In this document: positions 4,194-60,913 of the stretch, in pieces | Numbering within the stretch: position 1 is the first letter of the stretch | How the letters are laid out: every line of letters starts with the position of its first letter | DNA from: an uncultured Gammaproteobacteria bacterium | Lineage (GTDB): Bacteria > Patescibacteriota > Patescibacteriia > UBA1558 > 2-01-FULL-52-15 | NCBI GenBank assembly: GCA_964540995.1 | Contig: CAZIOU010000003.1 | Span: forward strand, 576-64,575 | Length of the DNA: 64,000 nucleotides | Direction of reading: 5' to 3' | Made by a program: the position numbers and the translations under genes | The notes under the pieces: model-generated | The model's input: only the letters and a program-made list of their open reading frames with translations | Told to the model about the DNA's origin: nothing | The model's database searches: none

Positions 4194-4227
4194 ACTGAAA
4201 ACAGGGGCTAATTACTAAAGCATAATT

Positions 4228-9039: not shown

Positions 9040-9058
9040 TGGTAGGACGACAGGTTCT
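8968..9058 (+). repeat. 91-bp direct repeat copy 2 (overlaps GIY-YIG 3' end and the intact tRNA-Gln 5' half)
   Basis: See copy 1. Confidence 0.7.
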
Positions 9059-14992: not shown

Positions 14993-15087
14993 ATTCAATA
15001 ATCAAGCTACAATAATCAATATCAAATTGCAGAAAACGCCGGTGCACGAGTTTGAATATTGATTATTTCTGTATTGAATATTGTTTG
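14993..15087 (+). repeat. about 95-bp AT-rich repeat element ending in paired TTGAATATTG motifs
   Basis: TTCAATAATCAA..TGCAGAAAACG..GAGTTTGAATATTGATTATTTCTGTATTGAATATTGTTTG; a second full copy at 22051-22165. Confidence 0.6.
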
Positions 15088-15181
15088 AAATTTGGGTATT
15101 GATTATTGAACATTTCTCTGTATGCTGGATTGCTTCGCCCGCGGACGTTCTCGCAAAAGTGACAATAACTTGCTCTAGGCG

Positions 15182-16093: not shown

Positions 16094-16096
16094 GGG

Positions 16097-20583: not shown

Positions 20584-21144
20584 ATGTCTGATGCCTTACG
20601 ATTATTTATAGCTTTGGAGCCTGATAGTGGCGTTCAGAAGCAAGCAGCTAAGGAGTTTGCTCGCTTTGGTTTCGGTACTGAAGTCAAACCAACCGACAAG
20701 GAGCAGTTACACTCCACACTCAAATTTTGGAGTCATTTCCCACTTCAAGACCTGGCTCAACTCTTACAAGCATTAGAAGATGTGGCACAGCGTCATCCAG
20801 TGCTTACTTTGGATTTCAATCAGCCAGTAATCTTCGGCGGGCAACAAGCTCGTGTCCTAGCACTCGAAGCCGAGAAGAATGAGGAATTAGTTGATCTGTA
20901 TAATGATCTGGAGGAGACCTTGGTGGAATACGGCTTGGCTGACAGGGAAGGTAGATTGTTCCGCCCGCATCTGACATTGGCGCGAGTCAAAGATTATTTT
21001 ACTGAAGAAGACAGGCAGAAGTTTGAAGCTTGGAAGCCGGACATCTCGGCAGTCCATGAAGATTTGAAATTATATTCCAGTATTCTCACTCCCAAAGGAC
21101 CGGAGTATGATCAGTTGGGGAGTTTTCCGCTGCAGAATGAGTAA
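20584..21144 (+). CDS. thpR: RNA 2',3'-cyclic phosphodiesterase (2H phosphoesterase, LigT/ThpR)
   Basis: Two HxT/S motifs, 'HSTLKFW' and 'HLTLARV'. Short leader after a CATAAT-like -10. Confidence 0.8.
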   Translation: MSDALRLFIALEPDSGVQKQAAKEFARFGFGTEVKPTDKEQLHSTLKFWSHFPLQDLAQLLQALEDVAQRHPVLTLDFNQPVIFGGQQARVLALEAEKNEELVDLYNDLEETLVEYGLADREGRLFRPHLTLARVKDYFTEEDRQKFEAWKPDISAVHEDLKLYSSILTPKGPEYDQLGSFPLQNE

Positions 21145-21256
21145 TTTAATATCGTCTTTGCGAGAACGTCTGCGGGCAAAGCAATCTAGTATGCAGGAAA
21201 TTTCAAGCTAGACTGCCACGGCCTTGCTAGGCCTCGCAGAGACAGAATGAAAATAA

Positions 21257-22039: not shown

Positions 22040-22510
22040 AATATAGGGTAATACTCAAGTTTCAATAATCAATAGCCAAACAATAATAAATAATTAAGTT
22101 AAAATGCAGAAAACGTTAAAGAATGAGTTTAAATATTGATTATTTCTGCGTTGAATATTGTTTGCCTGCCCGTCTTGGCAAGCCAAAGGCGCGTCGGGCG
22201 GGGAATTTGAGTATTGTTTATTGAATATTTATAAGCTAGACTGCTTCGTCGACCAAGCTCGCCTCGCAGAGACAGAGACTGCTTTGTTTATTGAATATTG
22301 GACCTTTCTCTGGTATCTTTAGCCCAGAATAGACAATAATTATCAATATTCAAGCCACAATAGTCAAACAATAATCTCAGCCAAAGGCTGATCGTCCTCT
22401 GGACGAAAACAATAACTAATAATCAATTTTCAATAGAAGAAAAATACATAAAGAGTTTGAATATTGATTATTTCTGTATTGAATATTGTTTGTAACTTGA
22501 GTATTGTTTA
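22040..22510 (+). repeat. 470-bp AT-rich non-coding region packed with TTGAATATTG / CAATATTCAA motifs and two about 40-bp direct repeats
   Basis: GAGTTT(G/A)AATATTGATTATTTCTG..TTGAATATTGTTTG at 22125-22165 and 22453-22493. GAGTATTGTTTATTGAATATT at 22209 and 22500, the latter abutting the tagA ATG. Confidence 0.6.
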
Positions 22511-23239
22511 TTGAATATTATGAAAAAGATTGAGCTCCTCGGAGTCAAAATAGCTACGCTAGAGCCAACCGAAATCGATAGCACTTTGGCTGATTTTTTG
22601 CATACACCTGGTCTCAAACAGATTGTCACGGTTAATCCAGAATTTCTCGTTACAGCTCAAGAAGACAGTGAATTCAAAGCTATTCTGAACTCGGCTGATC
22701 TGGCCTTGCCGGACGGTGTCGGCATCATCTACGTCAGTAAAATATTAGGAAAGAAAATTTCACGAACCAATAGAATGACAGGTGTGGAGCTGACGCACTC
22801 ACTACTGAAGCTGGCTGAAGCTGAACAAAAAACCGTGGAGATCGTTTTGCCCGCCAATGCACTTTCAACCCAAGAAGAAATTTTAATCAACGTGAAAAAA
22901 CTGAATCCCCAGAGCATCGTTAAAGTTATTGCAGCTGCAGATGTCCAAGAACAATCACCACGAGCAGATATAATCTTCGTAGCGCTGGGAGCTCCGGAGC
23001 AAGAGAAGTGGATTTGGAGTCAGCGAGAGAAATTATTGGGCACGAAGATTGCCGTCGGAGTAGGGGGGACGTTTGACTTCATATCTGGTAAAATACCAAG
23101 AGCACCACAGTGGCTGCGTTCTCTGGGCTTGGAATGGCTCTATCGCCTCTACCAAGAGCCAAGGAGAAGGTTTAAGCGCATTATACGGGCGGTTATCGTG
23201 TTTCCGTGGCTCGTACTCACTAAGAGTAATAATCAATAA
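22511..23239 (+). CDS. WecB/TagA/CpsF-family glycosyltransferase
   Basis: 'LLGVKI', 'VTVNPEF', 'LPDGVGI'. Confidence 0.85.
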   Translation: MNIMKKIELLGVKIATLEPTEIDSTLADFLHTPGLKQIVTVNPEFLVTAQEDSEFKAILNSADLALPDGVGIIYVSKILGKKISRTNRMTGVELTHSLLKLAEAEQKTVEIVLPANALSTQEEILINVKKLNPQSIVKVIAAADVQEQSPRADIIFVALGAPEQEKWIWSQREKLLGTKIAVGVGGTFDFISGKIPRAPQWLRSLGLEWLYRLYQEPRRRFKRIIRAVIVFPWLVLTKSNNQ

Positions 23240-23366
23240 TCAAATTCCAATTTACAAACAATATTTAATCTTCAAATCCCAAACAGCAATGCTTTTAGGT
23301 TTGTCTGTATTGAATATTTGATATTGTTTGGCACTTGATTATTGAGTCTTGAAATTTCATTTTTGT

Positions 23367-36517: not shown

Positions 36518-37079
36518 AGAGGAGTGTTAATTATTAGTTGTTGTGGACAACTATAGTATGTCGCACAATATATGTAAAGCGACATGTAAATAATAACGTA
36601 TCCCAATAAAGCCGTCAAACGCTACAGTAATGATCGTTTTGACCCTGTGCCCTACTACGTAAATCAAATTTTGAATTCAAGGTACAATATGACCTGAAAT
36701 TTCAATTTGTACGCTCTTCTATCGGTTTCGTCCGTTACTCCTATCTCTTTAGCTACGACGCATTTAAAGCCTCGTTTGAGGATGGCTACGGTACTCGGTA
36801 CTAGGTGCTCGTTTAGATCTATTAGGGCATCTATGACCTAAGTCGCTCTTAGTGACACTAGCTAGCACTTATTCAGTTAATGCGCTTTGGGTCATCTATG
36901 ACCTGAATTGGTAAATTTAAATTCAACTGACGTTCGTGTTGGATAGATCAGACCACTACGGCTCGTTTCGAATTATGTTTAGGAGGTATGTCGCCTCCAA
37001 AAATGCACTGGTGGGCTATGTGTCGTAAAATATATTGCTGCATGGGACTCGGTACTAGGTGCTCGGGACTCGAAAAGAA

Positions 37080-37110
37080 ACACCGCCTCGATGTTTGAGA
37101 CGGTGTTGTG
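37080..37110 (-). terminator. rho-independent terminator of the serS-alr-ftsQ transcription unit
   Basis: On the minus strand: AACACCGTCTC-AAACATC-GAGGCGGTGTT followed by TCTTTTC. Confidence 0.6.
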
Positions 37111-37132
37111 GACGTTGGGCGTCCGAAGATTA

Positions 37133-39368: not shown

Positions 39369-39456
39369 CGTTAGTTATTAGTTACATGTTACTAGTTATT
39401 AGGGAAGAGCTAATGAATCAATCTGACCCTAATAACTAATACCTAATAACTGCTCG
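39369..39456. repeat. TTATTAGTTATTAGGG / CCCTAATAACTAATA inverted-repeat spacer
   Basis: Arms at 39373-39400 and 39428-39452. Related copies at 45715-45755 and 55130-55200. Confidence 0.6.
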
Positions 39457-40731
39457 CTATTTAATGACTTTCTTCCCCACAAATGGCTGTAGGACATCCG
39501 GTACAACGATCGATCCGTCCGCTTGCTGATAGTTCTCGAGGATGGCGATCAAGATACGCGGTGAGGCCACCACGGTGTTATTCAAGGTATAAGGATAGAT
39601 GTTTTCGCCCTTGTCATTCTTGTAGCGTAGATTGAGTCGGCGACTCTGCCAATCGGTCAGGAAGGATAGTGAATGAGTCTCACCGTAGGCATTGCGACTG
39701 GGCATCCAGGTTTCAATATCGTACATTTTGTATTTACCAGCACCCATATCACCGGTACAGATGTGGAGCAGACGATGTGGTAAACCAAGCTCTTGGAGTA
39801 ATTCTACTGCGTAGCCGAGCATCTCTTGGAAGTACTTCTCCCCGACTTTGAGATCAGCTTCGCAAACTACGACTTGTTCAATTTTGAAAAACTCATGTAC
39901 GCGGTACAGGCCTTTGGTATCTTTGCCATAGCTGCCAACTTCGCGGCGATAGCATTGAGAAATACCACAATACTTCAAAGGTAATTCTTTGGCTGTTAAC
40001 AGTTCATCGGCACGATAGGCTAAGAGTGAGGGTTCGCTCGTGCCGGCTAAATATTTATTTTCTTTCTCATTCTGCTCACTGGTTTCATAGATTTCTTCTC
40101 GGCCAGCAGGGAAATGTCCGCTACCGGTGAGCGCCATTTCTTTGACCATGGTTGGAGTAAACATCGGGGTGAAGCCAGCTTTGACCATTTTTTGGATAGC
40201 CAGACTGATCAAGCCCCAATGCATCAAAGCCAATTCATTTTTCAAGAAATACCCGCGGAAACCAGCAACCTTCACTCCTCGATCGAAGTCTAGTAGGTCA
40301 TGAGCCAAACCTAATTCGATGTGATCTTTGATAGGGAAATCAAAATTTTTCGGTTCACCATTTTTCTGAATCTCGACATTGCTATGTTCATCAGCACCAA
40401 CAGGCGTATCTTCAGCGTAGACATTGGGTACCAGCAGCATCAGGTTAGTGTATTCGATTTCAATTTCATCGAAATGTTTCTGCAATACTTCTAACTTCGA
40501 TTTGATCTTCTTGCCCAATTCGATTAGTTCCTGATCAGGTTTGCCCTTCTGTCCGCTAATGGTAAAAGCATTGGCCTTCTTCTCTTGATTAAGCTGTTCT
40601 ATTTGACGCATCAGGTCACTACGCTGTTCGTGCAAAGCCAAGAGACGATCTAGATCGACCTGACTATTTTTGTTCTTGATAGCCAAGAGAACTTGTTCTT
40701 TGTTGGCTTGGATGAATTTGATGTCAAGCAT
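39457..40731 (-). CDS. serS: serine--tRNA ligase
   Basis: N-terminal coiled-coil; class II motifs 'FRREVGSYGKDTKGLYRVHEF', 'GETHSLSFLTD..RR'. Confidence 0.95.
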   Translation of the reverse strand: MLDIKFIQANKEQVLLAIKNKNSQVDLDRLLALHEQRSDLMRQIEQLNQEKKANAFTISGQKGKPDQELIELGKKIKSKLEVLQKHFDEIEIEYTNLMLLVPNVYAEDTPVGADEHSNVEIQKNGEPKNFDFPIKDHIELGLAHDLLDFDRGVKVAGFRGYFLKNELALMHWGLISLAIQKMVKAGFTPMFTPTMVKEMALTGSGHFPAGREEIYETSEQNEKENKYLAGTSEPSLLAYRADELLTAKELPLKYCGISQCYRREVGSYGKDTKGLYRVHEFFKIEQVVVCEADLKVGEKYFQEMLGYAVELLQELGLPHRLLHICTGDMGAGKYKMYDIETWMPSRNAYGETHSLSFLTDWQSRRLNLRYKNDKGENIYPYTLNNTVVASPRILIAILENYQQADGSIVVPDVLQPFVGKKVIK

Positions 40732-40734: not shown

Positions 40735-40798
40735 AGTCAGTATTAAGTATAGTATTAAGTATAATGTATTAAGTATGATGTATTAAGTATGATGTATG
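40735..40798. repeat. tandem repeat of about 13 bp (GTATTAAGTAT unit, about 5 copies)
   Basis: AGTATTAAGTATAGTATTAAGTATAATGTATTAAGTATGATGTATTAAGTATGATGTATG directly upstream of the serS start. Confidence 0.7.
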
Positions 40799-41170
40799 TC
40801 AGGCTTTGAGCGTTCTGATAAGACCATTGATGAGTTTATGGGTCGTTATAATTCCTTGATCAAGCAGATCATATTCGGGTTTTGTTATCTGGTTAATATC
40901 ATGACAGATATAAATTTGACTTTGAAGTTCCGTTAATGATCCGAGTGCGATAGCTAAGAGTTGAATTTTGTCTTTCTTACCCCTACGAGAAAACGATTCT
41001 GCAATATTGGAAGTGACTGATACAGTTGCACGTCGCATCTGCGATGTTAGTCCGAATCGTTCAGTGTCAGGAAAAGTCGATGTTATGCGATAAATGCGAT
41101 TTACAATTTTGGCTGCTTCTTGCCAAGCGTACAAATCTTTGAATGACGTTATCTTCTGATTGGCGCACAT
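40799..41170 (-). CDS. four-helix-bundle protein (family formerly called 23S rRNA intervening-sequence protein)
   Basis: 'FKDLYAWQEAAKIVNRIYRIT..FP..ERFGLTSQMRRATVSVTSNIAE' is typical of the family. Confidence 0.8.
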   Translation of the reverse strand: MCANQKITSFKDLYAWQEAAKIVNRIYRITSTFPDTERFGLTSQMRRATVSVTSNIAESFSRRGKKDKIQLLAIALGSLTELQSQIYICHDINQITKPEYDLLDQGIITTHKLINGLIRTLKA

Positions 41171-45624: not shown

Positions 45625-45668
45625 GACCAAAACAGCGGGCGTTTCCACATCGTGGAAACGCCCGCTTT
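45625..45668. terminator. hairpin terminator
   Basis: AGCGGGCGTTTCCAC-ATC-GTGGAAACGCCCGCT followed by TTAAAAT. Confidence 0.7.
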
Positions 45669-45834
45669 AAAATAGAAGAAAGTAGAATGTAGAAAGAAGT
45701 AAGGGAAAGAAGCTAGAGTTTGCCCTTCCCTAATAACTAATAACGAATGACGAATATCAATTCAACCAGCTAGATTGCTTCCCTCATTGTCATGGTTCTA
45801 CAAGCTCACCATGACAATTCGGTCGCAATGACAG

Positions 45835-46641
45835 TTAGGAATGCGGATTCTGCTTACCGCGATATTTCATCCAGTATTTATAGAAACTTTTGATATGTTC
45901 ACGACTGGAGCGGTGAAAGACGCTTTGCAACACTCCATTATCGGCTGATTCACGTTTGTGATAATGAGTAAATTCAGCATCAGCCACGTACCAGACTTGA
46001 TAACCAGCTTCCCAGAAACGTCGACACCAATCAGTATCTTCGAGGTATAAGAAAAAATTCTCGTCCAAAAGACCAACTCTGATCAAAGCTTCTTTGCGTA
46101 CGATCAGTGTGGCTCCCACCAACCAATCAATGGCGCGGTTAGACCGGTGATCCCACTCGCGATAGAAATAATGATCTAACCACTTGCGGCCATAAGTAGT
46201 ATCTTTGAGTGCCGTGCGTCGGAAGAACGGTAGCAATAAGCTAGGCCAGCGCGAACAGGATTCTTGCAGTTCACCATTGGGATGTACCAGACGCGGTCCA
46301 GCGATGCCGACGTTGGTATTGCGATCCATGAAATCAACCAAACGCTCGATCTCTTCTGCTCGGCGGATGGTGATATCGGGGTTGATGATGAGAATATATT
46401 TTCCTTGGGCTCGATTGATGCCGAGATTATTACCGGCAGCGTAGCCTCGATTGGCATCGGACGTGAGGAAGGTGACGCTCGGATAGTCTGGGCCCAATTC
46501 AGCAGCTAGGTTGTCTCCAGATGCATTGTCCACGACAATAATTTCCATTTCCAATGATGGTTTGAGAGACAACAAATTCTTCAGTTGGTATTTGACCAGC
46601 TGGGCAGTCTGATAGTTGACGATGATGATGGAGAGGGTCAT
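45835..46641 (-). CDS. family-2 glycosyltransferase
   Basis: 'LSIIIVNYQ', 'VVDNASGD', 'DAEF'. Confidence 0.85.
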   Translation of the reverse strand: MTLSIIIVNYQTAQLVKYQLKNLLSLKPSLEMEIIVVDNASGDNLAAELGPDYPSVTFLTSDANRGYAAGNNLGINRAQGKYILIINPDITIRRAEEIERLVDFMDRNTNVGIAGPRLVHPNGELQESCSRWPSLLLPFFRRTALKDTTYGRKWLDHYFYREWDHRSNRAIDWLVGATLIVRKEALIRVGLLDENFFLYLEDTDWCRRFWEAGYQVWYVADAEFTHYHKRESADNGVLQSVFHRSSREHIKSFYKYWMKYRGKQNPHS

Positions 46642-46740
46642 GAAGATTGGGGCTGGGGACTCGTTACTCGCGACTCGGACGGGCGCGTCTTCCCCTAGTA
46701 GCGAGTAACGAGTACCTAGTACCCTTGTTATCTAAACCAC
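46641..46740. repeat. palindromic MITE-like element, copy A (intergenic)
   Basis: GGGGCTGGGGACTCGTTACTCGCGACTCGGACGGGCGCGTCTTCCCCTAGTAGCGAGTAACGAGTACCTAGTACC. Its reverse complement matches 52090-52215. Confidence 0.7.
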
Positions 46741-47732
46741 GAAGCGAAATCGCTCGGCTTAATACTAATTAATTTACGGATATATTTGCGCTTATACACC
46801 AGTTTAGGTCGTAAGCGCCAATACTCGACTAATCCGGTAATACTAGATCCATCGACAAAAAGCAAGTACAGCCACTTGGCTAATTCATAGACCAGCATCC
46901 GTGGGAAAAATCTAATGGTCAGCGAAGAGAAACTGTTTTTCTTAATCATGGCCAGATGATTACGGTAAGACAATAGATTGATCAGCTTACGGCCGCGGCG
47001 TTCGTGTTGGCGATTCTTCTCCTGATTGCTGATCGTACGATCATGATAGGCAGCGATATCAGCCAAGACATAGTGCTCCCAGCCATTGAGGCGGAGTCGC
47101 CAAGCCAGGTCAACATCTTCTTTGTAGGCGAAGAAATCCTCGTCAAAATATTCGTATAAGTCAGGACTATTCTTCTTGGGGATTTTGGTGGCTTCCAGCG
47201 CCTGCCGGCGATACAGTACTGCCACTGCGCTCAAGCCAAAGACCTGTCCCGACTGATAGGTCTCGCTGTCGGGTAAGGTCTGATAGCGGTCGGCGACATG
47301 ATAGCGCTGGTAAATCTCCAAACCAAAAGAATCAATACTATCTGTCAGCTCGGAATTGGCGAAGTCCCAGCGTAATAATTTACCGCTGACAGAGGCAACT
47401 TCAGGATGTTGATCTAAGAATGCAACCAGACGTGAGACGTAGTTCTCTGGTAGCAAGACATCAGGATTGAGCACCAAGATATAGTCACTGTCAGACCAAT
47501 TGATAATAGCGTTATGCGCGCGGGAGAAACCGATGTTATGTCGCTGCTCCAATAACTTGCAGTTAATAGCCACCTCACGGATAGCAGCCAAGGTTCCGTC
47601 AGTTGATTCATTATCTAAAATAAACAACTGCCAATCTTTAAAGTCCTGCTTAGCAATAGCCGGCAAGACATAAGGCATATATTTCTCACTGTTGTAGGTA
47701 ACCAAACTAATGGCTACTTTGGGTTTTGTCAT
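46728..47732 (-). CDS. family-2 glycosyltransferase
   Basis: 'VAISLVTYN', 'ILDNESTDGT'. Confidence 0.85.
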   Translation of the reverse strand: MTKPKVAISLVTYNSEKYMPYVLPAIAKQDFKDWQLFILDNESTDGTLAAIREVAINCKLLEQRHNIGFSRAHNAIINWSDSDYILVLNPDVLLPENYVSRLVAFLDQHPEVASVSGKLLRWDFANSELTDSIDSFGLEIYQRYHVADRYQTLPDSETYQSGQVFGLSAVAVLYRRQALEATKIPKKNSPDLYEYFDEDFFAYKEDVDLAWRLRLNGWEHYVLADIAAYHDRTISNQEKNRQHERRGRKLINLLSYRNHLAMIKKNSFSSLTIRFFPRMLVYELAKWLYLLFVDGSSITGLVEYWRLRPKLVYKRKYIRKLISIKPSDFASWFR

Positions 47733-49155
47733 GATAGAGATATAACCAGACTAAGATCAGATAGCCGAGACCCAAGGGGTGGTTGAGATACGGCGTCAGA
47801 GCATGGGTCAGACTGATGAAGAGTAAACTGCTGCCGGCCAGGAGTAGCCCTGTCTGATGACGCTCCACTCCTCGACGCCAACAGAGCCATAAGAGATAAA
47901 CGATCAGGCTAAACCAAGTCAGCCAACCAAGGATACCAAATTTGAAAGCAAAATCCAGCCACCCAAGTTCAAAGGCATAAGTAGTATAAGTTCCATCGGG
48001 ATTAGCCAGATTTCTAATGCGCGGATCCTGATTGATATAGGTTAACGTACTACCGAAGCCAGCACCGGTTATCCAATTGGTTTCTATACCACGAATCAAG
48101 ACTGGTAATAAATTGGCACGGGAAGAAGCTGCTGCTTCGCCTCCGGACAGTCGCCGAGCAAAAGCTGCAGCTACGTTAGCGTCTACCGGTGGGACGAAGA
48201 GTAATCCCAGTGTCAAAACAGCTGACGACAGAACAAGGCAGATTATCAGACCGATTCGTTTCCAAGATAGTTGTAATCTTCTGGCTATAAGTGGAATGGT
48301 GATAATCACCGTTCCGATCAGGGCTACTCCGAAGCTGCGTGACAAACTGATCAGGATGGCTGATCCGATGACGGTGAGTAGTAACCAATTCTTCTTGGTG
48401 AAACGTACACTGGCATCGAGTGACAGTAGTAGCAGACCCATTAACCAGATAATGACCAGATAGAGTTGCGACTGGAAAAATACTCGCCAGACATTACCGG
48501 TGACGAAGGTTAATTCCCCCACCTTGGTATCGCGTACCCAGAGATAGAGATAAGCAATATTGGCCCAAGGGTAGGCATGAGCGAAAATATGAAAGATGGC
48601 CAACGCCTTGAGACTGACGATCAGTACCGCCGCAACTGCGATAGCAGCAACTTTCTTCCAATCAATCGTCGGGATGAGATTAAGCCAGACCAACCAGTAG
48701 CCGAGATAGAGATAGTTATTGGCGTCGAAGAACATAGTAGCTAAACTGTTGTGACGCAGCAGTCCCACGGTAATCGCAAGGGCTAAGAAAAATACCACAG
48801 CGCCATACCAGCGTGCTAATGGCTGTGACCAGCTTATTTTACGCAGGCTGCTAATAATCGAAGGCAAACTAACCAAGAAGATAATGACAAACAGTAATAA
48901 GCGTAGCGATACTTCCGCTCCACCGAAAGTCCAGTAAAATGATTTACCGAGTGAACCCCAGACCAATTCTGCTAGTGGCAGATACAAGGCCCAGCGACGA
49001 TCACGGTGAAGTAGCCAGATGGTAGCTCCGGTGATCGCTAGTAATAGTAACCAGTTGAGCCACGACAAGGTATAGGCAGCCAGTGATAGTACTTCGGCGA
49101 TAACCAGTAGCAAGGCAGTGATTTGGAACCAATGATAATTGAGATAGCGAGACAT
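47707..49155 (-). CDS. O-antigen ligase/polymerase-like (Wzy/WaaL family) membrane protein
   Basis: About 12 TM helices and a large periplasmic loop, sited inside a glycan locus. Confidence 0.6.
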   Translation of the reverse strand: MSRYLNYHWFQITALLLVIAEVLSLAAYTLSWLNWLLLLAITGATIWLLHRDRRWALYLPLAELVWGSLGKSFYWTFGGAEVSLRLLLFVIIFLVSLPSIISSLRKISWSQPLARWYGAVVFFLALAITVGLLRHNSLATMFFDANNYLYLGYWLVWLNLIPTIDWKKVAAIAVAAVLIVSLKALAIFHIFAHAYPWANIAYLYLWVRDTKVGELTFVTGNVWRVFFQSQLYLVIIWLMGLLLLSLDASVRFTKKNWLLLTVIGSAILISLSRSFGVALIGTVIITIPLIARRLQLSWKRIGLIICLVLSSAVLTLGLLFVPPVDANVAAAFARRLSGGEAAASSRANLLPVLIRGIETNWITGAGFGSTLTYINQDPRIRNLANPDGTYTTYAFELGWLDFAFKFGILGWLTWFSLIVYLLWLCWRRGVERHQTGLLLAGSSLLFISLTHALTPYLNHPLGLGYLILVWLYLYHDKTQSSH

Positions 49156-49156
49156 A

Positions 49157-50005
49157 TTAGCCTTTGATGAAACTATAGAGCCAAGTCAGGAGCAGATTGA
49201 AGGGCATCATCAGATACAACCAAGCAACAGCAATGGGATTGCTGTGCTTCTTCATGTAGGTCAGTAGACTGCGATTGAACATCATTTGTAAACGAAGGGT
49301 GAAATGTTGACGGAAAGAAGCTTTGCCATGATGCACAATTTCCGCTGCTGGATAATACAGTAATTTCAGACCAGCTTGTTGTACGCGACGACAGAAGTCA
49401 ACTTCCTCGAACCAAAGATAAAACGATTCATCTAGCGTACCGATCTGGTCTAACAGTGAACGACGGAATAGCAAGGCCGCCCCCATAAGCTGCTCGACTT
49501 CTGCTGCTTGCGAATAATCAAAATCCCAACAGAGATACTGGCGTAAGGGCCAGACTGATGGGAGGACATTAATCATTTTGAGCACGACGGCCGTTTGATC
49601 GGCGACGTTAGGATTGCGCCGGACAGAACGTTGCCTGCTACCGTCAGGATTGAGCAAGGCCGGAGCGATAATACCAACCTGCGGCTTTTGTGCCAATTGA
49701 TCCACTAACTGTGCTAATGCAGTCGGCTTAACTTCCGTATCGGGATTGAGCATCAGGATGTAATCACCGGTGGCTTGAGCCAATCCTTGGTTATTGGCAG
49801 CGGCGAACCCTAAGTTAGTATCGTTAGCAATTAGTCTGACCTGAGGAAATTCCGACATCACCATGACTCGTGAGCCATCGCTGGAATGATTATCAATGAC
49901 GATAACTTCCAGTTCTAACGCTTTAGAGGATCGCTGCAACGACTGCAGACATTGTCGCAATAACCCGCGCACATTCCAGCTAACGATGACAACAGACAGC
50001 TTCAT
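49157..50005 (-). CDS. family-2 glycosyltransferase
   Basis: 'LSVVIVSWN', 'IVIDNHSSDGS'. Confidence 0.85.
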   Translation of the reverse strand: MKLSVVIVSWNVRGLLRQCLQSLQRSSKALELEVIVIDNHSSDGSRVMVMSEFPQVRLIANDTNLGFAAANNQGLAQATGDYILMLNPDTEVKPTALAQLVDQLAQKPQVGIIAPALLNPDGSRQRSVRRNPNVADQTAVVLKMINVLPSVWPLRQYLCWDFDYSQAAEVEQLMGAALLFRRSLLDQIGTLDESFYLWFEEVDFCRRVQQAGLKLLYYPAAEIVHHGKASFRQHFTLRLQMMFNRSLLTYMKKHSNPIAVAWLYLMMPFNLLLTWLYSFIKG

Positions 50006-50006
50006 C

Positions 50007-51194
50007 TTAAGCGTTTATTTTTTTCTCCACGATGTCTACCATGGCGTCAACCGTTTTGATCCAAGAATAGCGCTCCATCAAGGTTTTCTTGGCTTGCGCT
50101 TTGGTCTCGTCGCCAATGTCAGCAATAGCCAGTTGCAGCTGGTCATGGAAAGCCTCATAACTATCAGCAATATAGATCTGGTCATGGAACATTTCGGCTC
50201 CACTCCCCGCCGTTGCTACCACCGGTTTACCGCAAGCTAGATATTCGTACATTTTCATCGGATTGGTAGAGGCGATGAATTCATCTTGTTTGTGCGGTAT
50301 CAGACCAATGTCAAATTGTTGGATGTACATAGGAGATTCAGAATATTCTTTGTAACCGAGGAAATGAATATTGGGTAAGGCTTGTAACTCTTTGGAATCT
50401 TCGGCGTACCAGACAGGACCACAGAGTACGAAGGATTTGTCAGGATTTTTCTCGGCCAGATATTTGATCAACGGCAGATCGACTCGTTTCTGGATGACGC
50501 CAATGTAACCAATAATCGGTCGTGGCAAATCAGCAATATCACGATTGACCAGACGCCACGGCTGTTGATAATGTTTTAGATCCACGCCATTGGGGATCCA
50601 ATAGACATTAGGTTGATTGTCGAAAACTTTCTGCAAATCTTCGGACACCGTGAAGATGACGTGACTGTGTTTCTTGATGTATTGATAGTTGTCTTGCAAT
50701 CGTTTCTTGATGAAACCATAGGAGCTGTGCTCGGCCCAGTTATCAACCGCGTCGAAAATAGTGAATTCAGCTTTGAGCGGTTCGAGATATGGCATGATCG
50801 GCGGGAAGAAGGACCAGACCACCGTAGTTTCAAATCCCAACTTGGTCAATGTCTGACGCAAGCGTTTGATGTAGCCTTGGGGATCGAGATGGAAAGAAAT
50901 GTCAGAGTAAACAAATTGCCGATCCGATAGTTGGATCGTTCGTTGCCACAGTGAACGTTGGATCACCTTGCCGCTCTTGAGCGGAGTGATGATAGTTTCT
51001 TTGAAATTACGAGCAGCTCGTTTCCAAGTTAGTGGCGGATAGTCGATGCAGATAATTTTGCGAAATTCGTGTCGCTTGGCCAATTCTTGCCAGATGTGGA
51101 AATTGCGGTTATGCACACCGTGCTCCCACTCGGTGAAATTGGACATATTGATCAAGACCAGATCGATCGGTTTCATATTAGGACAGTATAGCAT
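50007..51194 (-). CDS. family-1 (GT4-like) glycosyltransferase
   Basis: C-terminal 'FDIGLIPHK..E..STNPMKMYEYLACGKPVVAT'. Confidence 0.85.
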   Translation of the reverse strand: MLYCPNMKPIDLVLINMSNFTEWEHGVHNRNFHIWQELAKRHEFRKIICIDYPPLTWKRAARNFKETIITPLKSGKVIQRSLWQRTIQLSDRQFVYSDISFHLDPQGYIKRLRQTLTKLGFETTVVWSFFPPIMPYLEPLKAEFTIFDAVDNWAEHSSYGFIKKRLQDNYQYIKKHSHVIFTVSEDLQKVFDNQPNVYWIPNGVDLKHYQQPWRLVNRDIADLPRPIIGYIGVIQKRVDLPLIKYLAEKNPDKSFVLCGPVWYAEDSKELQALPNIHFLGYKEYSESPMYIQQFDIGLIPHKQDEFIASTNPMKMYEYLACGKPVVATAGSGAEMFHDQIYIADSYEAFHDQLQLAIADIGDETKAQAKKTLMERYSWIKTVDAMVDIVEKKINA

Positions 51195-52347
51195 TAAGCT
51201 GGTTAGCCTTGGTGGTCCAATCAGGTAAGGTTTGGAGCTGATTGTAAGCGGCTTCGCCTAATTGTTGGCGCACTTCTGGATGGTCTAGTAGGTATTTCAG
51301 ATTAGCACTAATCGCTTCCAGTGAGGTGCTATCAACCAACAAACCGCTAACTTCGTGCTGCAGTATTTCTTCGGCTGAAGTATGTTGACCAGCGATGATC
51401 GGCAAGTGGAAATGAGCAGCGTCGAGATAGACGATGCCATAGCCTTCGATATCAGCACCAAGATTCAGTGTGGGTAACATGAAGATATCGGCTGCCTGAT
51501 AGTAGTTAGCAATATCCTCGTCACTGACATCAGTTAGGAAGGAAACCTGATCATTAATTTTCAGTTCGGTTGCGAGATGCTGTAAGGAAGCTAATTCTGG
51601 ACCGTTGCCAACGATGAGATAGTGACTATCATCACGACCCAAGGCATTCATCGCTTTCAACATCAGTTCATGATTCTTGCGTTTCACTAGACGACTAACA
51701 GTAAGGATGATCTGTTGGCCGACAAACTGTTGCTTGATAGCGGCGACACGCACTGGATCGGCTACCAGTCGTCCTGTCATGTACGGTGTGATCACGGTTA
51801 ATTTATTGGCCGGCAAAAGTGGCGCTACGATGGATCGGGTTGTTTCGCTGTTGACGATGACGTGATGGGCATTGGTCAGTAGACGAATGGCAGTCGTGCG
51901 ATCTTTGGCCAAAGCCAGATTGATATCCAGACCGTGTAATGACAAAACGTAGGGAAGGTTTAATTTCTTGCCGACTTTTTCCGCGATCAAGCCCAGCGGC
52001 AAAATGTGTGGTGTGAAAATAAGTTCAATCTTTTGTTGCTGACACAATTTCTTGACATTACGATAACCAGTTAGCCAGCGCGGGCGGAAGAGCTTTCCGA
52101 GAAGAGGTACTCGGTGCTCGTTACTAGGTACTCGGGAAGACGCGGGCGACCGAGTCGCGAGTAGCGAGTCGCTAGTACCGATTTGTCCGTCTCGAGCACC
52201 AAGTGACGAGTCCCCAGCCCCGCTCTTCATATCATGCGCCACAATATAATTTTGCTGTGGCAAATGTGAAAATAAACCGTAGCAATAATTGGCAATGCCG
52301 CCGCGGAAGGGGAAATATTCGTGTGTGAGGAGAAGGGTTTTTTTCAT
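51178..52347 (-). CDS. family-1 (GT4-like) glycosyltransferase carrying an in-frame insertion of repeat element B
   Basis: N-terminus 'MKKTLLLTHEYFPFRGGIANY' and C-terminus 'EGYGIVYLDAAHFHLPIIAG' are typical GT4. Residues about 42-85 (SGAGDSSLGARDGQIGTSDSLLATRSPASSRVPSNEHRVP) are low-complexity and are encoded by the element at 52090-52215. Confidence 0.8.
   Translation of the reverse strand: MKKTLLLTHEYFPFRGGIANYCYGLFSHLPQQNYIVAHDMKSGAGDSSLGARDGQIGTSDSLLATRSPASSRVPSNEHRVPLLGKLFRPRWLTGYRNVKKLCQQQKIELIFTPHILPLGLIAEKVGKKLNLPYVLSLHGLDINLALAKDRTTAIRLLTNAHHVIVNSETTRSIVAPLLPANKLTVITPYMTGRLVADPVRVAAIKQQFVGQQIILTVSRLVKRKNHELMLKAMNALGRDDSHYLIVGNGPELASLQHLATELKINDQVSFLTDVSDEDIANYYQAADIFMLPTLNLGADIEGYGIVYLDAAHFHLPIIAGQHTSAEEILQHEVSGLLVDSTSLEAISANLKYLLDHPEVRQQLGEAAYNQLQTLPDWTTKANQLNAILS
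52085..52215. repeat. palindromic MITE-like element, copy B (inside a CDS, inverted relative to A)
   Basis: GGTACTCGGTGCTCGTTACTAGGTACTCGGGAAGACGCGGGCGACCGAGTCGCGAGTAGCGAGTC...GAGTCCCCAGCCCC. Shares GAAGACGCG..CCGAGTCGCGAGTA.CGAGTC and CCCAGCCCC blocks with revcomp(A). Confidence 0.7.
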
Positions 52348-52470
52348 GGGGGTTGGGAATTGGGAATCAGGAATTAGGCGTTAGGAATTGGCAATTTGGT
52401 TTTTAGTAAATTATGGCCTCTCTGATTCCTACTGCCTAATGCCTACGGCCTAAGGAACTGGATTAATGAT

Positions 52471-53910
52471 TTAACGTTTGAGACTCGCTAACAAAGTACG
52501 TAAGTCAGCTGGTTTAAGTAGCCCAAGGATCCAGGTTCCTGCCAGGTAGGCTAGAGCAGCCAAAGCTATAGTTAGGTAGATATTGAGGTAATGGACTAGG
52601 AAAAGGATCAGCAGGGCCATCAGGAAGGCCATTATAAGCGTTTTAACGGCCATTATAAGCGTTTTGGCCCTGTTATAGGCTATATGGCGGTTGAGCACCC
52701 ATAAGCTCAAAATAAAGACCAAAATGGTACTAGTGGTCGAAGCCGCAGCCGCTCCCCGTGCCCCGTACATCGGGATCAGGATAAGGTTGCTGGTCACATT
52801 CCAGATAAGACCAGCAGTCACGATGGCGGTCTGCGCCCGCTGTTGGTTAATGGCATTGAGCAAAGAGCCCAAAGGAAAATTGATAAACAGAAATGGTAAA
52901 TTGGTGATCAGGATTTGTAAGGGCAAGACAGCATTGCCGAAAGCGCCGGTATAAATATGCGGTATCACATACGGTGCAGACACGATCAAACCTAAACTAA
53001 TGGGAGCAGCGACTAATAACAGATAGTGAATCGAACGAGTGAAGGTGACGGCTAGTTGCTCACGATCGTGCTGCCAGTAGTAGGCAAAGGCCGGATATAG
53101 TGCAGCGACGAAAGCTAATGGTATGAATTGGAAAGCAAAAGTAATTTTGTAGGCCACAGAATAATAACCGACTTCGGTGCTGCCCTGCATCAAGCGCAAC
53201 AAGACAGAATCAGTATAGGCATATAAGCGTGTAAAGACTGCAGCCAGAGCAAACGGTACGATCAAAGTCCATAATTCACGCAGTAGACCTTGATTCCAAG
53301 TCCAGTGCAGATGAAATCCGACTTTGCGCCGAGCGACCCACCACGAGTAAGCGAAGTTGAAGCTGCTGGCCACTACCAGGGCAACGATCAAAATGTCGAC
53401 GGGGAAGTGCAGACGTATCAAGGTGAAGCCAATGACGAGAATGATGAATTGGTGTAGCAGCGTGGCGAAACTTTCGTAGCCTAAGTTTTGTTTACCACGG
53501 ATACCGGAATAAAAAATTAAGGTAAAGCCATCCATAACCATGGCGATAGCGGCGACGATGATCAAGATGGCAGTCGCTAGATCGTGTACCAAGAAAGGGG
53601 TGATCAATCCCAACGCTACAATGACAAACAGTGACGTGACGATCTTGAGCGAGATGATCTGGTTAAATAATTTATCAGCGCCCTCCCCGCCTTTGGCCAC
53701 TTCGCGGGTAGCGATAGCGGACATACCGAGGTCAGCGAAGACGGCAAAGATTAGGACATAGGAAGTAGCGAAGAAGTATTTACCGGTATCCTCTGGGCCG
53801 AGGTAGCGGGCCAATAAGGTGAAATAAACAAAAGAAATGACCTTCTGCAAGGTCAGGGCAATCATATACCAGGCGGCATTGGAGGTGACTTTCTGGGTCG
53901 AAACTGACAT
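52471..53910 (-). CDS. Wzx-like oligosaccharide flippase (polysaccharide biosynthesis protein, MOP superfamily)
   Basis: 14 predicted TM helices and a typical N-terminal region. It contains a 21-bp in-frame tandem duplication at about 52600-52645 (KTLIMAV KTLIMAF). Confidence 0.75.
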   Translation of the reverse strand: MSVSTQKVTSNAAWYMIALTLQKVISFVYFTLLARYLGPEDTGKYFFATSYVLIFAVFADLGMSAIATREVAKGGEGADKLFNQIISLKIVTSLFVIVALGLITPFLVHDLATAILIIVAAIAMVMDGFTLIFYSGIRGKQNLGYESFATLLHQFIILVIGFTLIRLHFPVDILIVALVVASSFNFAYSWWVARRKVGFHLHWTWNQGLLRELWTLIVPFALAAVFTRLYAYTDSVLLRLMQGSTEVGYYSVAYKITFAFQFIPLAFVAALYPAFAYYWQHDREQLAVTFTRSIHYLLLVAAPISLGLIVSAPYVIPHIYTGAFGNAVLPLQILITNLPFLFINFPLGSLLNAINQQRAQTAIVTAGLIWNVTSNLILIPMYGARGAAAASTTSTILVFILSLWVLNRHIAYNRAKTLIMAVKTLIMAFLMALLILFLVHYLNIYLTIALAALAYLAGTWILGLLKPADLRTLLASLKR

Positions 53911-54054
53911 ATGGGCAGTATAGCAAATTAGACTAATTTATCTAGTGTTTTGGCAAGGGGAAGATAGGGAGCTCGCAAAGGGTAATTCGTAATACGTAAT
54001 GCGTAATTACGTGCTACACCTTACGTTGTACGCCGTACGTCTTACGCTTTACGT

Positions 54055-54100
54055 CTCTAAAAAAATCCCCCCATACACGAATGTACGAGGGGATGGTTGG
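54055..54100 (-). terminator. terminator (shared motif with 55195-55243)
   Basis: Minus strand: CCATCCCCTCGTACA..TGTATGGGGGGATTTTTTTAGAGA. Confidence 0.6.
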
Positions 54101-54970: not shown

Positions 54971-55194
54971 TGATGCTCCTTAGGGTGAATCTGTATCTGG
55001 TTGTTAGATACTATTTCACCGGAAGAAGGTGCTAAGATAGGCCATTTCTGCGAGATGGCAGAACATTCCTATCAGAGCGGTGTAAATGAACTGTTGCAGT
55101 TTTACTATGGATGGAGTCATTTGTCAATCGTTATTAGTTATTAGGGTAGGTTGCCCTCTCTTCCCGAATAACGAGTAACTAATAAAAAATATCT

Positions 55195-55243
55195 CTCTTC
55201 AAAAAAATCCCCCCGCACTATGCGTACGAGGGGATGGTTATCA
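55195..55243 (-). terminator. terminator (paralogous to 54055-54100)
   Basis: Minus strand: CCATCCCCTCGTACGCATAGTGCGGGGGGATTTTTTTGAAG. Confidence 0.6.
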
Positions 55244-56245: not shown

Positions 56246-56300
56246 TCGTTTCGACCGAAGTCCCGCTCGGGTGGGACGAGCAGAGAAACCTTTATTATAC
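56246..56300 (-). repeat. inverted copy of the GIY-YIG-flanking repeat
   Basis: GTCGTTTCGACC[hairpin]GAGCAGAGAAACCTTTATTATA equals revcomp of the conserved ends of 56856-56917. Confidence 0.6.
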
Positions 56301-56396
56301 TTTGGGTGGCAATACAGTATTTAGTAAAGGTTTCTCTGCTCGTTATCTTATGGATAGCTGGGAAAAGTCACAATCATAATTGGTTGCTGTGTAGTG

Positions 56397-56458
56397 TGTA
56401 ATAAAGGTTTCTCCGCTCTCTACGCCTGCGGCTTCGTTCGGTCGAAACGACAGAGCAA
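56397..56458 (+). repeat. direct repeat R1 flanking the GIY-YIG gene (3' side)
   Basis: GTGTAATAAAGGTTTCTCCGCTC[22-nt hairpin]GTCGAAACGACAGAGCA. Confidence 0.7.
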
Positions 56459-56460
56459 TA

Positions 56461-56787
56461 TTAATCTTCGCGAGGGACTATCTCCTCCCCCGTCAGAGCA
56501 AAGTCATACAAGTCGATGAATTTGGGATTATAGATTTGGATGAGTTGTAATTTTTTATTTCTGTTCCAGCGTTTGATTTGCTTCTCGCGCGCGATGGCCT
56601 CTAATGGACTACCATAATGTTGGAAGAAAAGCAGTTTGTGTGTATTGTAGTGGGCGCTAAAACTTCGAGGATTATATTTTGTCCGATGTTCATTAATTCG
56701 CCGCTCAATGTTATTCGTAATGCCCACGTAAATACAGGTATTGTATTTGTTACTAATTATATAGGTGGTGTAGATGCGATCTGGCAT
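56461..56787 (-). CDS. GIY-YIG nuclease family protein (second copy, diverged)
   Basis: 'IYTTYIISNKYNTCIYVGITNNIERRINEH'. Confidence 0.8.
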   Translation of the reverse strand: MPDRIYTTYIISNKYNTCIYVGITNNIERRINEHRTKYNPRSFSAHYNTHKLLFFQHYGSPLEAIAREKQIKRWNRNKKLQLIQIYNPKFIDLYDFALTGEEIVPRED

Positions 56788-56855
56788 TGGAGGTTAAATA
56801 AACTGTAATAATTTTTTTTGGCCTGTCTGGCTACGCAAACTTGGAGAAGTCTCGA

Positions 56856-56917
56856 TTATGTGTAATAAAGGTTTCTCCGCTCACCTCTCGCCGCGAGAGG
56901 TTTGGTCGAAACGACAG
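56856..56917 (+). repeat. direct repeat R2 flanking the GIY-YIG gene (5' side)
   Basis: TGTGTAATAAAGGTTTCTCCGCTC[ACCTCTCGCCGCGAGAGGTTTG]GTCGAAACGACAGAGCA. Ends are identical to R1; the middle hairpin differs. Confidence 0.7.
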
Positions 56918-56924
56918 AGCAGAA

Positions 56925-56960
56925 AATAAAACAAGGTATCGAATGATACCCTGTTTTTTG
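56925..56960. terminator. bidirectional terminator after rpsI
   Basis: CAAGGTATC-GAAT-GATACCCTG with A-tract 5' and T-tract 3'. Confidence 0.65.
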
Positions 56961-57018
56961 TAATATATTGTGTCTAGCGTTTCGACCATCCCCTCGGCTT
57001 TGCTCGGGGTTCCGCAAG

Positions 57019-58172: not shown

Positions 58173-58248
58173 AATAGTTGGTAGCTTGGTAGGTTATTAG
58201 CTTAGTAGGAATGTAGGCTGGTAGATAAGTAGATTGGTAGTTGTGTAG

Positions 58249-59016
58249 CTAGGCAGTAGCTTCGGCTGATTCAGCCTCTTCTTCAGCGGCTTCAGCTTTC
58301 TTGGACTTTTTCTTAGGCTTAACTTCAACGGCTGATTGTTCTTTGATGAAGTTGAAGTGCTCGATCAAGATATCAGATGACATAGTGATAGCTTCTTCAC
58401 CGGTCATTGATCCATCGGTGGTGATAGCCATGACCAAACGTTCATAGTCAGTCTGTTGACCGACACGGACGTGTTCGATCTCGAAGCCGACATTGATAAC
58501 TGGTGAGAAAATAGCATCGATATCGATGGCTCCGATCTCGCCTTTGTGCTTGCTCTGGGTATCGACCGCTAGATAACCACGACCGCGGCTGATAGTCAAT
58601 TCCATCTCGAAGACGGCTTTCTTATCAGTCAGGGTGGCGATCACCATATCGGGGTTGGTGACTTCAGCTTGAGCGTTGGGTTTGATGTCAGCACCGGTGA
58701 CTACTTTGTCGCCTTTGGCGGACAGGGTCAAGACAACCGGCTCATCGCCATGAAGCTTAACGTTTAATTTCTTCAAATTCAAAATGATATCTACCACGTC
58801 TTCTTTGACATGGTCGATAGTCTGAAATTCATGCTGGACACCAGAGATCTTGATACTGGTGACAGCAGCGCCGGGTAGCGACGATAAGAGGACGCGTCGC
58901 AGTGAATTGCCGAGGGTGACACCGTAGCCAGGGAAACAAGGCTCAATGACTACTTCGTAGACATTGGCTTTCTTTTCCTTATAGGATACGGATTTTGGTA
59001 ATTCGATTAATCCCAT
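58249..59016 (-). CDS. rpoA: DNA-directed RNA polymerase subunit alpha, N-terminal domain only (no recognisable alpha-CTD)
   Basis: Typical alpha-NTD (255 aa) ending in an acidic tail 'KKKSKKAEAAEEEAESAEATA'. No helix-hairpin-helix CTD follows before rpsD. Confidence 0.85.
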   Translation of the reverse strand: MGLIELPKSVSYKEKKANVYEVVIEPCFPGYGVTLGNSLRRVLLSSLPGAAVTSIKISGVQHEFQTIDHVKEDVVDIILNLKKLNVKLHGDEPVVLTLSAKGDKVVTGADIKPNAQAEVTNPDMVIATLTDKKAVFEMELTISRGRGYLAVDTQSKHKGEIGAIDIDAIFSPVINVGFEIEHVRVGQQTDYERLVMAITTDGSMTGEEAITMSSDILIEHFNFIKEQSAVEVKPKKKSKKAEAAEEEAESAEATA

Positions 59017-59654: not shown

Positions 59655-59754
59655 AGGATTGTTAATTGATTAATTGATTCATCGACTAATTGGCTACTCC
59701 TCTATCTTCTCGCTGAATCAATTGCTCTATTATTCTATTAATCTATTAATTAAA

Positions 59755-60636: not shown

Positions 60637-60723
60637 TTGTATAATAGATTAATGGAGTAATAGATTAATTGTCCCTACTTCAGTGCTGTGCAATTAATCA
60701 ATTATTCGATGATTCAATGATAT

Positions 60724-60837: not shown

Positions 60838-60913
60838 AGGATGTAGGTTGGTAGATTGGTAGGCGGTAGGTTGGTAGATGAAATAGTCTGGCTACTTCCT
60901 ACCTCCTGACGGA

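Follow-up and report, generated by a model that had tools for sequence, protein, structure and literature searches.

Heptanucleotide-repeat hairpins in the spacers and, in frame, in two genes of a Komeilibacteria-like genome

In a 64,000-nucleotide stretch of contig CAZIOU010000003.1 from an uncultured bacterium placed in the Patescibacteriota (below, the window is this whole stretch), a palindromic sequence occurs in two inverted copies within a cluster of glycan genes. One copy, element A, lies between two genes for family 2 glycosyltransferases (GT2), and the other, element B, lies inside the reading frame of a family 4 glycosyltransferase (GT4). The question raised by this locus is what kind of element can occupy a spacer and a gene alike. 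The original prediction, made from the letters of the sequence, had answered that it was a miniature inverted-repeat transposable element (MITE) of the Correia/RUP/ERIC type. The reading that we favour, with somewhat more confidence than doubt, is that A and B are paralogs from a set of heptamer-repeat hairpins found throughout the lineage, similar to short tandemly repeated repetitive (STRR) sequences, which are resized by slippage and filtered by the reading frame in a Komeilibacteria-like genome. The hairpins resemble selfish or neutral repeats of a known type rather than a classical miniature transposon. The features needed first are the following:

46646 to 46724, unstranded: element A, a hairpin occupying the spacer 46642-46727 between the genes GT2a and GT2b.
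52106 to 52224, minus strand: element B, a palindrome of heptamer arrays lying in frame in the GT4 gene (codons 42-81).
51178 to 52347, minus strand: gene of the GT4 (PimB-like) glycosyltransferase, a GT4/GT1 protein, which contains the whole of B.
52129 to 52218, minus strand: disordered loop of GT4, codons 44-73, between strands b2 (34-38) and b3 (77-79).

A and B proved to be inverted homologous copies, as had been proposed. A repeat search gave two inverted matches with 82% identity, one of 49 nt (46646-46694 against 52134-52182) and one of 38 nt (46640-46677 against 52193-52230), and the 20-mer GGGGCTGGGGACTCGTYACT and the 21-mer CCGAGTCGCGAGTANCGAGTC, both exact in A and in B, were shared beyond chance (0.01 and 0.00 expected from shuffles). 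The arms of both elements consist of tandem 7-nt units of the type CGAGTAC/GTACTCG, and both elements are imperfect palindromes. Both are present where they had been placed, with bounds nearer to 46646-46724 and 52106-52224 than to those drawn at first. The intergenic position of A was also correct: two minus-strand PF00535 genes flank a spacer of 86 nt (46642-46727). The first arm of A (46649-46678) is built of the units GGGGCTG, GGGACTC, GTTACTC and GCGACTC, followed by GG, the loop (46679-46693) has the hexamer CTTCCC at its end (46689-46694), and the second arm (46694-46724) has the units CTAGTAG, CGAGTAA, CGAGTAC and CTAGTAC. Within these, 46653-46678 and 46694-46719 are 85% complementary, and the predicted fold is a long stem with a free energy of -43.6 kcal/mol (z = -4.6 in comparison to dinucleotide shuffles). 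B contains the units of A in the opposite orientation, with arms at 52106-52135 and 52150-52179, a loop at 52136-52149, GGGAAG at 52134-52139 and a terminal block GGGGCTGGGGACTCG (reverse complement) at 52207-52221. The description of B as a long imperfect palindrome was right as to the imperfect palindrome, but the palindrome is weaker and composite (z = -1.7). An assembly artefact was ruled out, as the same elements are present in independent ENA, NCBI and Logan assemblies.

The heptamer periodicity of A and B recurs elsewhere in the window. Tandem Repeats Finder gave period-7/14 rows at A, at B and at many further places, and a lag-7 scan found 21 period-7 arrays in the window, where dinucleotide shuffles gave 0.5. 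At other periods there were 0-3 arrays (periods 4-6 and 9-12) or six (period 8). In this window, which is 87% coding, 18 of the 21 arrays are intergenic, and the three coding ones are both arms of B and element C, which joins A and B as the third copy in the CGAGTAC family. Most arrays pair into hairpins that occupy whole spacers, and the unit sequences in the window include CGAGTAC, TTAGTTA, GGAATTG, GTAATAC and AGTATTA. The further features of this kind are:

10585 to 10683, plus strand: element C, in frame in the M23 peptidase open reading frame (ORF) 10209-11516.
36790 to 36811, plus strand: single-arm array GGTACTCGGTACTAGGTGCTCG, the first of two half-copies.
37044 to 37072, plus strand: single-arm array GGGACTCGGTACTAGGTGCTCGGGACTCG, the second half-copy, a direct repeat of the array at 36790, 254 nt off.
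39370 to 39458, unstranded: hairpin H39, TTAGTTA/CTAATAA units, GGGAAG loop junction, occupying the alr-serS spacer.
40739 to 40798, unstranded: period-7/14 array, GTATTAAGTATGAT x 4.3, occupying the spacer upstream of serS.
45666 to 45762, unstranded: hairpin H45, AGAAAGT/AATAACG units, CTTCCC junction, between convergent genes.
52345 to 52457, unstranded: hairpin H52, GGAATTG/CCTAATG units, occupying the flippase-GT4 spacer.
53975 to 54056, unstranded: hairpin H53, GTAATAC/TACGTCT units, between a canonical terminator and the flippase start.
55115 to 55192, unstranded: hairpin H55, GTTATTA/AATAACG units, CTTCCC junction.

Hairpins H39, H45 and H55 are alike at 79-91% across 32-38 nt, H55 being 91% complementary to H45 across 32 nt. 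Homologous copies of A and B in the 64-kb window amount to three (A, B and C) plus two single arms. In the relatives discussed below, period-7 arrays occur at 1.4-5.2 per 10 kb and are made of other units.

To see how these elements change, we compared the window with syntenic loci of relatives, in which the identity of GT4 to that of the window is 93% (L001-L004), 88% (L006), 69% (L005), 46-49% (L007 and L132) and 48% (L133). L002 was aligned with the window in full over 21 kb. Across the part of the glycan cluster that aligns well (45835-53910), coding DNA shows just two indels of at least 3 nt, one of 42 and one of 21 nt, and both are within B. L002 has 21 extra nt (3 x 7) near window position 52132, and the other indel is the following segment:

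52163 to 52204, minus strand: 42-nt (6 x 7) stretch of B that the 93%-identical L002 ortholog does not have.

In the flippase-GT4 spacer, L002 lacks 77 nt (11 x 7) of H52, and A is about 99% identical in L002. The DNA between the two conserved anchors around B is 138 nt long in the window, 117 nt in L002, 96 nt in L006, 87 nt in L005, 180 nt in L007 and 54 nt in L133; all these lengths are multiples of 3 and all spans are stop-free. The spans of the window, L002, L006 and the insert-free version (138, 117, 96 and 54 nt) differ in 21-nt steps. An alignment of orthologs, which had been suggested as a check, thus found the insert in some and not in others. Its units also vary. L006 has CCGGACT units at site B, and L005 and L007 have a GTTGTAA/TTACAAC hairpin at B's codon position (z = -6.1 and -4.3, respectively). 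In L007 (GT4 ortholog at 2237-3436) a GC-rich palindrome, CCCGCCTCGC...GCGAGGCG...GGCGGG, is nested in the TTACAAC hairpin and adds about 31 aa in frame. The nucleotide identity of arms versus flanks between L005 and L007 depends on gap placement and was not used quantitatively.

The spacers tell of filled and empty sites as well. Site A is empty in L005, where the GT2 genes are 3 nt apart (TAA-TCT-ATG), and in L133, where they overlap (ATGA). The flippase and GT4 genes overlap in L132 and L133, and the H52 spacer is missing from L005, L132 and L133. Since the genes of L005, L132 and L133 abut or overlap, the ancestral cluster consisted of coupled, abutting genes whose spacers were later opened by hairpins. 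The heptamer ATGAAGA, common to A and B, was not relied on as proof that A had been copied from B: the ATGAAG at the edge of B is host sequence that encodes the conserved D-M-K, and that of A overlaps the GT2 start codon, TCT..ATG being already present at the empty site of L005. In L002, the GT2 call at 15602-16492 (the ortholog of window 45835-46727) is 296 aa long instead of 268 aa and runs through A. A single change creates an ATG at the edge of A and is the cause of this extension, which is likely an annotation artefact arising from a stop-free hairpin.

The inverted arrangement of A and B, which bracket five glycan genes, had led to the suggestion that they could promote inversion or deletion of the intervening 5.4-kb glycan segment. 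As recombination substrates, however, they have a longest exact identity of 16 nt in matches of 82% over at most 49 nt, an inversion would truncate GT4 after codon 41, and the loci L001-L005 and L133 are collinear with the window. The suggestion found no support here, and we consider such a role extremely improbable.

The length differences in units of seven also raise the possibility of a contingency locus, in which 7-nt slippage early in a surface-glycan gene would switch the glycosyltransferase on and off in the population. The B array lies in the 5ʹ third of the GT4 gene, which sits in a flippase/Wzy/GT cluster; 7 is not a multiple of 3, the unit number varies among relatives, and L002 carries three perfect CGAGTAC units. 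On the other hand, all the alleles seen are in frame (protein-based retrieval would miss OFF alleles), and no stretch of perfect units is found in the array of the window. Nor are such arrays specific to variable surface genes, since they are also seen in the linker of a housekeeping M23 peptidase and in most spacers. A switch of this kind appears quite improbable to us.

The frame itself was examined at the level of DNA in nine insert-bearing or empty versions (five of B and four of C), all of which are multiples of 3 and stop-free. This indicates that the inserts are translated rather than bypassed, and both programmed bypassing and an untranslated insert were ruled out on the same grounds. 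B lies wholly inside the ORF 51178-52347, within the N-terminal Rossmann domain of the glycosyltransferase, and leaves the frame intact, in agreement with the original prediction. Among 80 GT4 homologs, the N-terminal motif MKKTLLLTHEYxPFxGG and 33 further positions are invariant, which argues that the start at 52347 is correct and places the true start upstream of B. The extra peptide had been estimated at about 42 aa. Between the anchors DMK and RPRW, the protein of the window has 46 aa (138 nt) and insert-free homologs have 18 aa (54 nt), so that the addition is 28 aa, and the disordered stretch is 30 aa. The structure prediction that had been proposed as a further check gave an AlphaFold2 model with a mean pLDDT of 90.8, with values below 50 only at residues 44-73; the model has a GT-B fold, and its nearest structure is PimB' (3oka, TM 0.81). 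We conclude that B is genuinely inserted, and in frame, in a PimB-like GT4.

The persistence of an insert at this loop in orthologs down to 46% identity could mean that the protein feature is selected, the loop being a functional linker or a membrane- or partner-binding segment and the palindromy of the DNA incidental. The model is more confident at strand b3 (EHRV, EYRV, TYNL) than in the loop, and part of the B array encodes this strand. In contrast, the insert peptides at site B are unrelated across lineages (SGAGDSSLGARDG..., LPVVSYQLKDRK..., TGTRDQGSEQTPDSG...), most GT4 homologs do not have the loop, and distant orthologs are insert-free. Moreover, the same DNA is non-coding in A, and the palindromy at the level of DNA is strong (the L005 hairpin). 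Selection for the peptide is, in our judgement, very improbable.

Element C provides a second case of an array in frame. It sits where a linker joins the N-terminal domain of the M23 peptidase to the Csd3_N2 domain, encodes the peptide DSSLGTGKSNSQVTSIDSSVTSTEYRVPSPHP and has GGGACTCGTCACTCG in common with B. The C site is empty in P0125 (locus L129), where the linker is 6 aa long. In P0122, which is 96% identical, the linker is 7 aa (21 nt) longer than that of the window, and in L128 the site holds a GGGACTT/AAGTCCC hairpin. The peptides of B and C differ from one another and between orthologs. The GT4 and M23 peptidase homologs come from Patescibacteria, and the named ones are mostly Candidatus Komeilibacteria.

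Are such arrays known from other bacteria? STRR sequences are reportedly heptanucleotide repeats of heterocystous cyanobacteria, and one is said to lie inside the gene of RNase P RNA. The units of STRR1-3 are CCCCAGT, TTGGTCA and CAACAGT. Very small, possibly mobile repeats of Nostoc are reportedly tied to tandem heptamers and hairpin-forming contexts; they belong to a taxon other than the Patescibacteria studied here. The arrays of the window resemble STRR in their tandem 7-nt units, the several unit types per genome, the mostly intergenic position, the hypervariable unit number among relatives and the lack of a known function. They differ in being found in Patescibacteria, in a small, 87%-coding genome, in being mostly paired as hairpins with a loop motif, and in that two are translated in frame. 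Given the Patescibacteria and Komeilibacteria homologs and units unlike those of STRR1-3, we take them to be an analogue of STRR and not STRR proper. A report of STRR in Calothrix is mentioned in PMC4692102.

Heptameric repeats are over-represented in many bacteria and have been little studied, and polymerase slippage was proposed as their origin (Rehm et al. 2015, PMC4692102). The examples given in that paper include GGGAATC in Xanthomonas and GGGGA(C/T)T in Nostoc (with Mrazek et al. 2007 cited there). Like our arrays, these simple sequence repeats form period-7 arrays near start or stop codons, and vary in length and sequence among close relatives. However, they are G-rich and discussed as formers of G-quadruplexes, whereas here two complementary arrays form a Watson-Crick hairpin. 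In their in-frame behaviour, the hairpins are closest to Rickettsia palindromic elements (RPE), the documented instance of palindromic repeats that have entered many genes without breaking the frame (Ogata et al. 2000, summarised in PMC10969869). According to that summary, RPE are palindromes of about 100-150 nt, in frame in unrelated housekeeping genes at positions compatible with the fold, and also intergenic; but RPE families have a full-length consensus and a conserved peptide, whereas here the arms change units, the peptides are not conserved, and the lineage is unrelated.

Repetitive extragenic palindromic (REP) sequences, with their BIME and REPIN forms (PMC3116915, PMC3733652), share with the hairpins the short imperfect palindromes in operon spacers, the dispersed subfamilies and a conserved short motif. 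REPs, however, measure 20-40 nt, carry a GTAG or CGTC head at the foot of the stem and are accompanied by a RAYT gene. The hairpins have periodic arms and CTTCCC in the loop, and their stem feet have no tetranucleotide in common. Correia, ERIC and RUP elements (PMC10969869) are comparable in size range, in being palindromic and sometimes intragenic, and in forming RNA stem-loops in transcripts, but they have fixed terminal inverted repeats and target-site duplications (TA for Correia), and no clear case of either was found here.

The comparison with these elements bears directly on the MITE proposal, according to which the hairpins would be non-autonomous derivatives of an insertion sequence (IS), mobilised in trans via terminal inverted repeats, and would have landed in frame by chance. 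Two homologous, inverted, palindromic copies of 80-120 nt lie 5.4 kb apart, site A is empty in L005 and L133, and in-frame fusions are known for MITEs and RPEs (PMC10969869). Yet the comparison of filled and empty versions of A (window and L002 versus L005 and L133) and of C (window versus L129) showed at most an ambiguous 2-3 nt that could be a target-site duplication, the empty sites being from diverged genomes, and the same holds at B. The termini are no fixed inverted repeats but grade into degenerate heptamer arrays, the length changes by 7-nt units, and the ends are accordingly undefined. We saw no transposase, IS, HUH/Y1 or RAYT gene, and with this no parent element, in a Pfam scan of 38 ORFs, which are part of those of the window, or among the annotated genes of syntenic relatives. 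The arm is common to only three copies in 64 kb, a 20-mer specific for A and B was found in one other context (L131) in JGI metagenome contigs, and an exact search of viral contigs gave no match to A or B. The assignment to MITEs of the Correia/RUP/ERIC type is not supported, and a classical MITE origin seems to us quite improbable.

The two half-copies that had been noticed beside a presumed integrase gene are real: 36790-36811 and 37044-37065 are 95% identical. The neighbour is a recombinase, more exactly one of the XerC/D-type tyrosine recombinases. A link of the hairpins to it was rejected in view of this gene type and of the arrays near it, which are single arms. The gene-free 615 nt adjoining this gene (36518-37132) gave no Rfam match; in them two 22-nt direct repeats of the CGAGTAC type flank 232 nt holding CATCTATGACCT twice.

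We propose the following course of events for the heptamer-repeat hairpins. A short array would start at a site, possibly from native codons that were already unit-like; at b3, L133 has ATT CGA GTA AAG (with CGAGTAA), and L005 and L007 have ACTTACAACTTA, encoding T-Y-N-L. An inverted duplication by strand or template switching would then make the array a hairpin. The arrays are resized, as seen in the length differences by multiples of 7 nt, for which slipped-strand mispairing is the probable cause. The homology of A, B and C indicates that hairpins also reach other sites. Selection then acts on the coding versions, which keep the frame and stay stop-free (OFF alleles would escape protein-based retrieval), and as a consequence the differences between close relatives at B come in 21-nt steps. 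Coding hairpins are found where an extra peptide is harmless, in the disordered b2-b3 loop of GT4 and in the interdomain linker of the M23 peptidase. In spacers there is no frame constraint, and formerly overlapping, translationally coupled genes were opened, as seen in comparison to L133 and L005.

As for function, the hairpins most likely have none for the protein, and at most they form RNA stem-loops in the polycistronic mRNA. A takes up nearly all of the spacer, so that its stem would draw the stop upstream and the start downstream close to each other, and this proximity may be the reason why A is tolerated. A role as terminators was ruled out: T-runs are absent from the hairpins, and ahead of H53 and H55 lie canonical terminators separate from them. 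The Rfam search matched no hairpin to a family; only a tRNA-Gln was above the threshold, and weak miRNA-like matches were due to chance. The intrinsic terminators at 55207-55235 and 54065-54094 (minus strand) are nearly identical to each other (ATCCCCTCGTAC...GGGGGGAT and a T-run), and each is followed by a heptamer hairpin and then the next gene.

Several observations weigh against resizing by slippage as a full account. Slippage is expected to be slow in arrays as degenerate as these, in which perfect units in tandem are few. The fold of B is not significantly more stable than that of shuffles, and the 42-nt indel of B includes non-heptamer sequence. Two inserts do not fit the series: that of L005 at B is 87 nt between anchors, 33 nt above the 54-nt baseline and off the 7/21-nt steps, and that of L127 at C is 15 nt longer than in the window, which is a multiple of neither 7 nor 21. 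Hairpins persist at site B over deep divergence; the TTACAAC hairpin is common to L005 and L007 although their GT4 proteins are 48% identical, which hints at selection or at repeated re-acquisition. Slippage also gives no account of a 30-nt arm and loop common to A, B and C at unlinked sites, nor of a CTTCCC at one junction of hairpins with different arms.

This junction motif deserves attention. A (plus strand), B and C (both minus strand) have a common layout of arm, loop, CTTCCC and arm, and CTTCCC/GGGAAG stands at the loop junction in six of the eight hairpins of the window, including those with TTAGTTA-type arms; random segments give 0.11 of 8, and in the whole 64 kb there are only 32 such hexamers. 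Close relatives (L002, L127 and L131) have the motif as well. It may be that the hairpins are an enzyme-driven palindrome family similar to REP/REPIN, in which a nuclease or transposase acts on single-stranded hairpins with CTTCCC as the recognition or cleavage site, and the heptamer arms are secondary. In line with this, the hairpins fall into two or more subfamilies, each of three or more dispersed members (A/B/C, and H39/H45/H55), sites are found both filled and empty, one insertion is nested (L007), and a GIY-YIG cassette is present in the window and missing from L002 at that place. Against it stand the failure to find an HUH/Y1 transposase or a RAYT in the ORFs and relatives covered by the Pfam scan and annotation, the undefined ends, and the distribution of the motif, which is missing from two of the eight hairpins and from those of the more distant L005, L128 and L129. 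We judge this alternative unlikely, and it is kept alive by the gaps that slippage leaves: the copying route, CTTCCC and the persistence at site B. A bolder form of it, to which we would give a rather small chance, is that the hairpins belong to an actively propagated, undescribed mobile system with self-extending heptamer arms, CTTCCC as a signal and a hairpin-recognising enzyme, re-colonising the same loops and spacers in streamlined Patescibacteria.

The cassette itself lies at 56270-57017, where an ORF for a stand-alone GIY-YIG protein of 108 aa (56461-56787) is found among GAGCAGAGAAACCTTTATTA repeats (56276-56343, 56396-56418 and 56860-56882). About 700 nt around this ORF are missing from the 96%-identical L002, so that the region looks like a small mobile cassette, and L005 and L129 also carry such genes.

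Three units of the GACTCGN type (GACTCGNNACTCGCGACTCGG) gave matches to unrelated heptamer arrays at more than 118 loci in representative genomes among the matches listed, mostly in Acidobacteriota, Gemmatimonadota and Chloroflexota; many of these are long (GACTCGG)n arrays, and some are hairpins by start codons. In the same set (L009-L126), arrays of the (GACTCGG)n type are frequent in metagenome-assembled genomes (MAGs) of Acidobacteriota/Terriglobia, Gemmatimonadales and Chloroflexota, and the Acidobacteriota genome GB_HAYS_MAG_00028 has matches on at least 11 contigs among those listed.

Other repeats of the window and its relatives may be recorded here. The array of 14-nt units (x 4.3) upstream of serS adjoins an ORF (40799-41170) for a protein of the 23S rRNA intervening-sequence/bAvd-like family. 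Period-8 arrays (TCTATTAA, ATTGATTA and GTAGCTTA) occupy spacers of the ribosomal-protein/rpoA operon at 58178-58250, 59658-59750, 60642-60721 and 60843-60879; six period-8 regions were found in comparison to 0.3 expected, and the arm pair 59719-59755/60635-60671 is inverted across about 880 nt. AT-rich dispersed intergenic repeats, D1-D5 (up to 67 nt, 93%), lie at 15048-15175, 21139-21196, 22040-22520 and 23218-23350; a 58-nt intergenic pair (15118/21139) is inverted with 79% identity, and these repeats are partly periodic in 7 nt (TATTGAA/TATTGAT). In L005, a Komeilibacteria MAG, single C/T/A-rich (CCTAANN)n arrays at 1355-1396, 3814-3842 and 4201-4242 abut the ATGs of ribosomal-operon genes, with no visible Shine-Dalgarno sequence, and in the window a C/T/A-rich heptamer array at 52345-52396 abuts the GT4 start in the same manner. 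A direct repeat of 94 nt (8635-8728 and 8965-9058, 97%) covers about 34 nt at the beginning of tRNA-Gln (9025-9098) together with the region upstream, and is a partial tRNA duplication, as left by an integration or a deletion scar.

What is new here is that heptanucleotide arrays and RPE-like in-frame palindromes, both of known kinds, occur in a lineage for which they have had no earlier description in the literature searched, where we found nothing on such repeats in Patescibacteria. Streamlined genomes are thus not repeat-free: in an 87%-coding genome of the Patescibacteria, repeats fill most spacers of an operon and enter two housekeeping genes. The locus also offers a natural experiment, in which one type of repeat is seen under two regimes, the differences between the window and L002 being multiples of 7 nt in the spacer and of 21 nt in coding sequence, and this contrast is of use for the question of why bacteria have heptamer repeats in excess. 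For the annotation of genomes of the candidate phyla radiation (CPR), low-complexity loops in proteins and extended ORFs, such as the GT2 call of 296 aa instead of 268 aa, can be artefacts of hairpins. A new mechanism of mobility would be indicated if CTTCCC is the mark of a process driven by an enzyme, and if the hairpins were indeed a mobile system, that process might underlie the heptamer excess in Acidobacteriota, cyanobacteria and other phyla.

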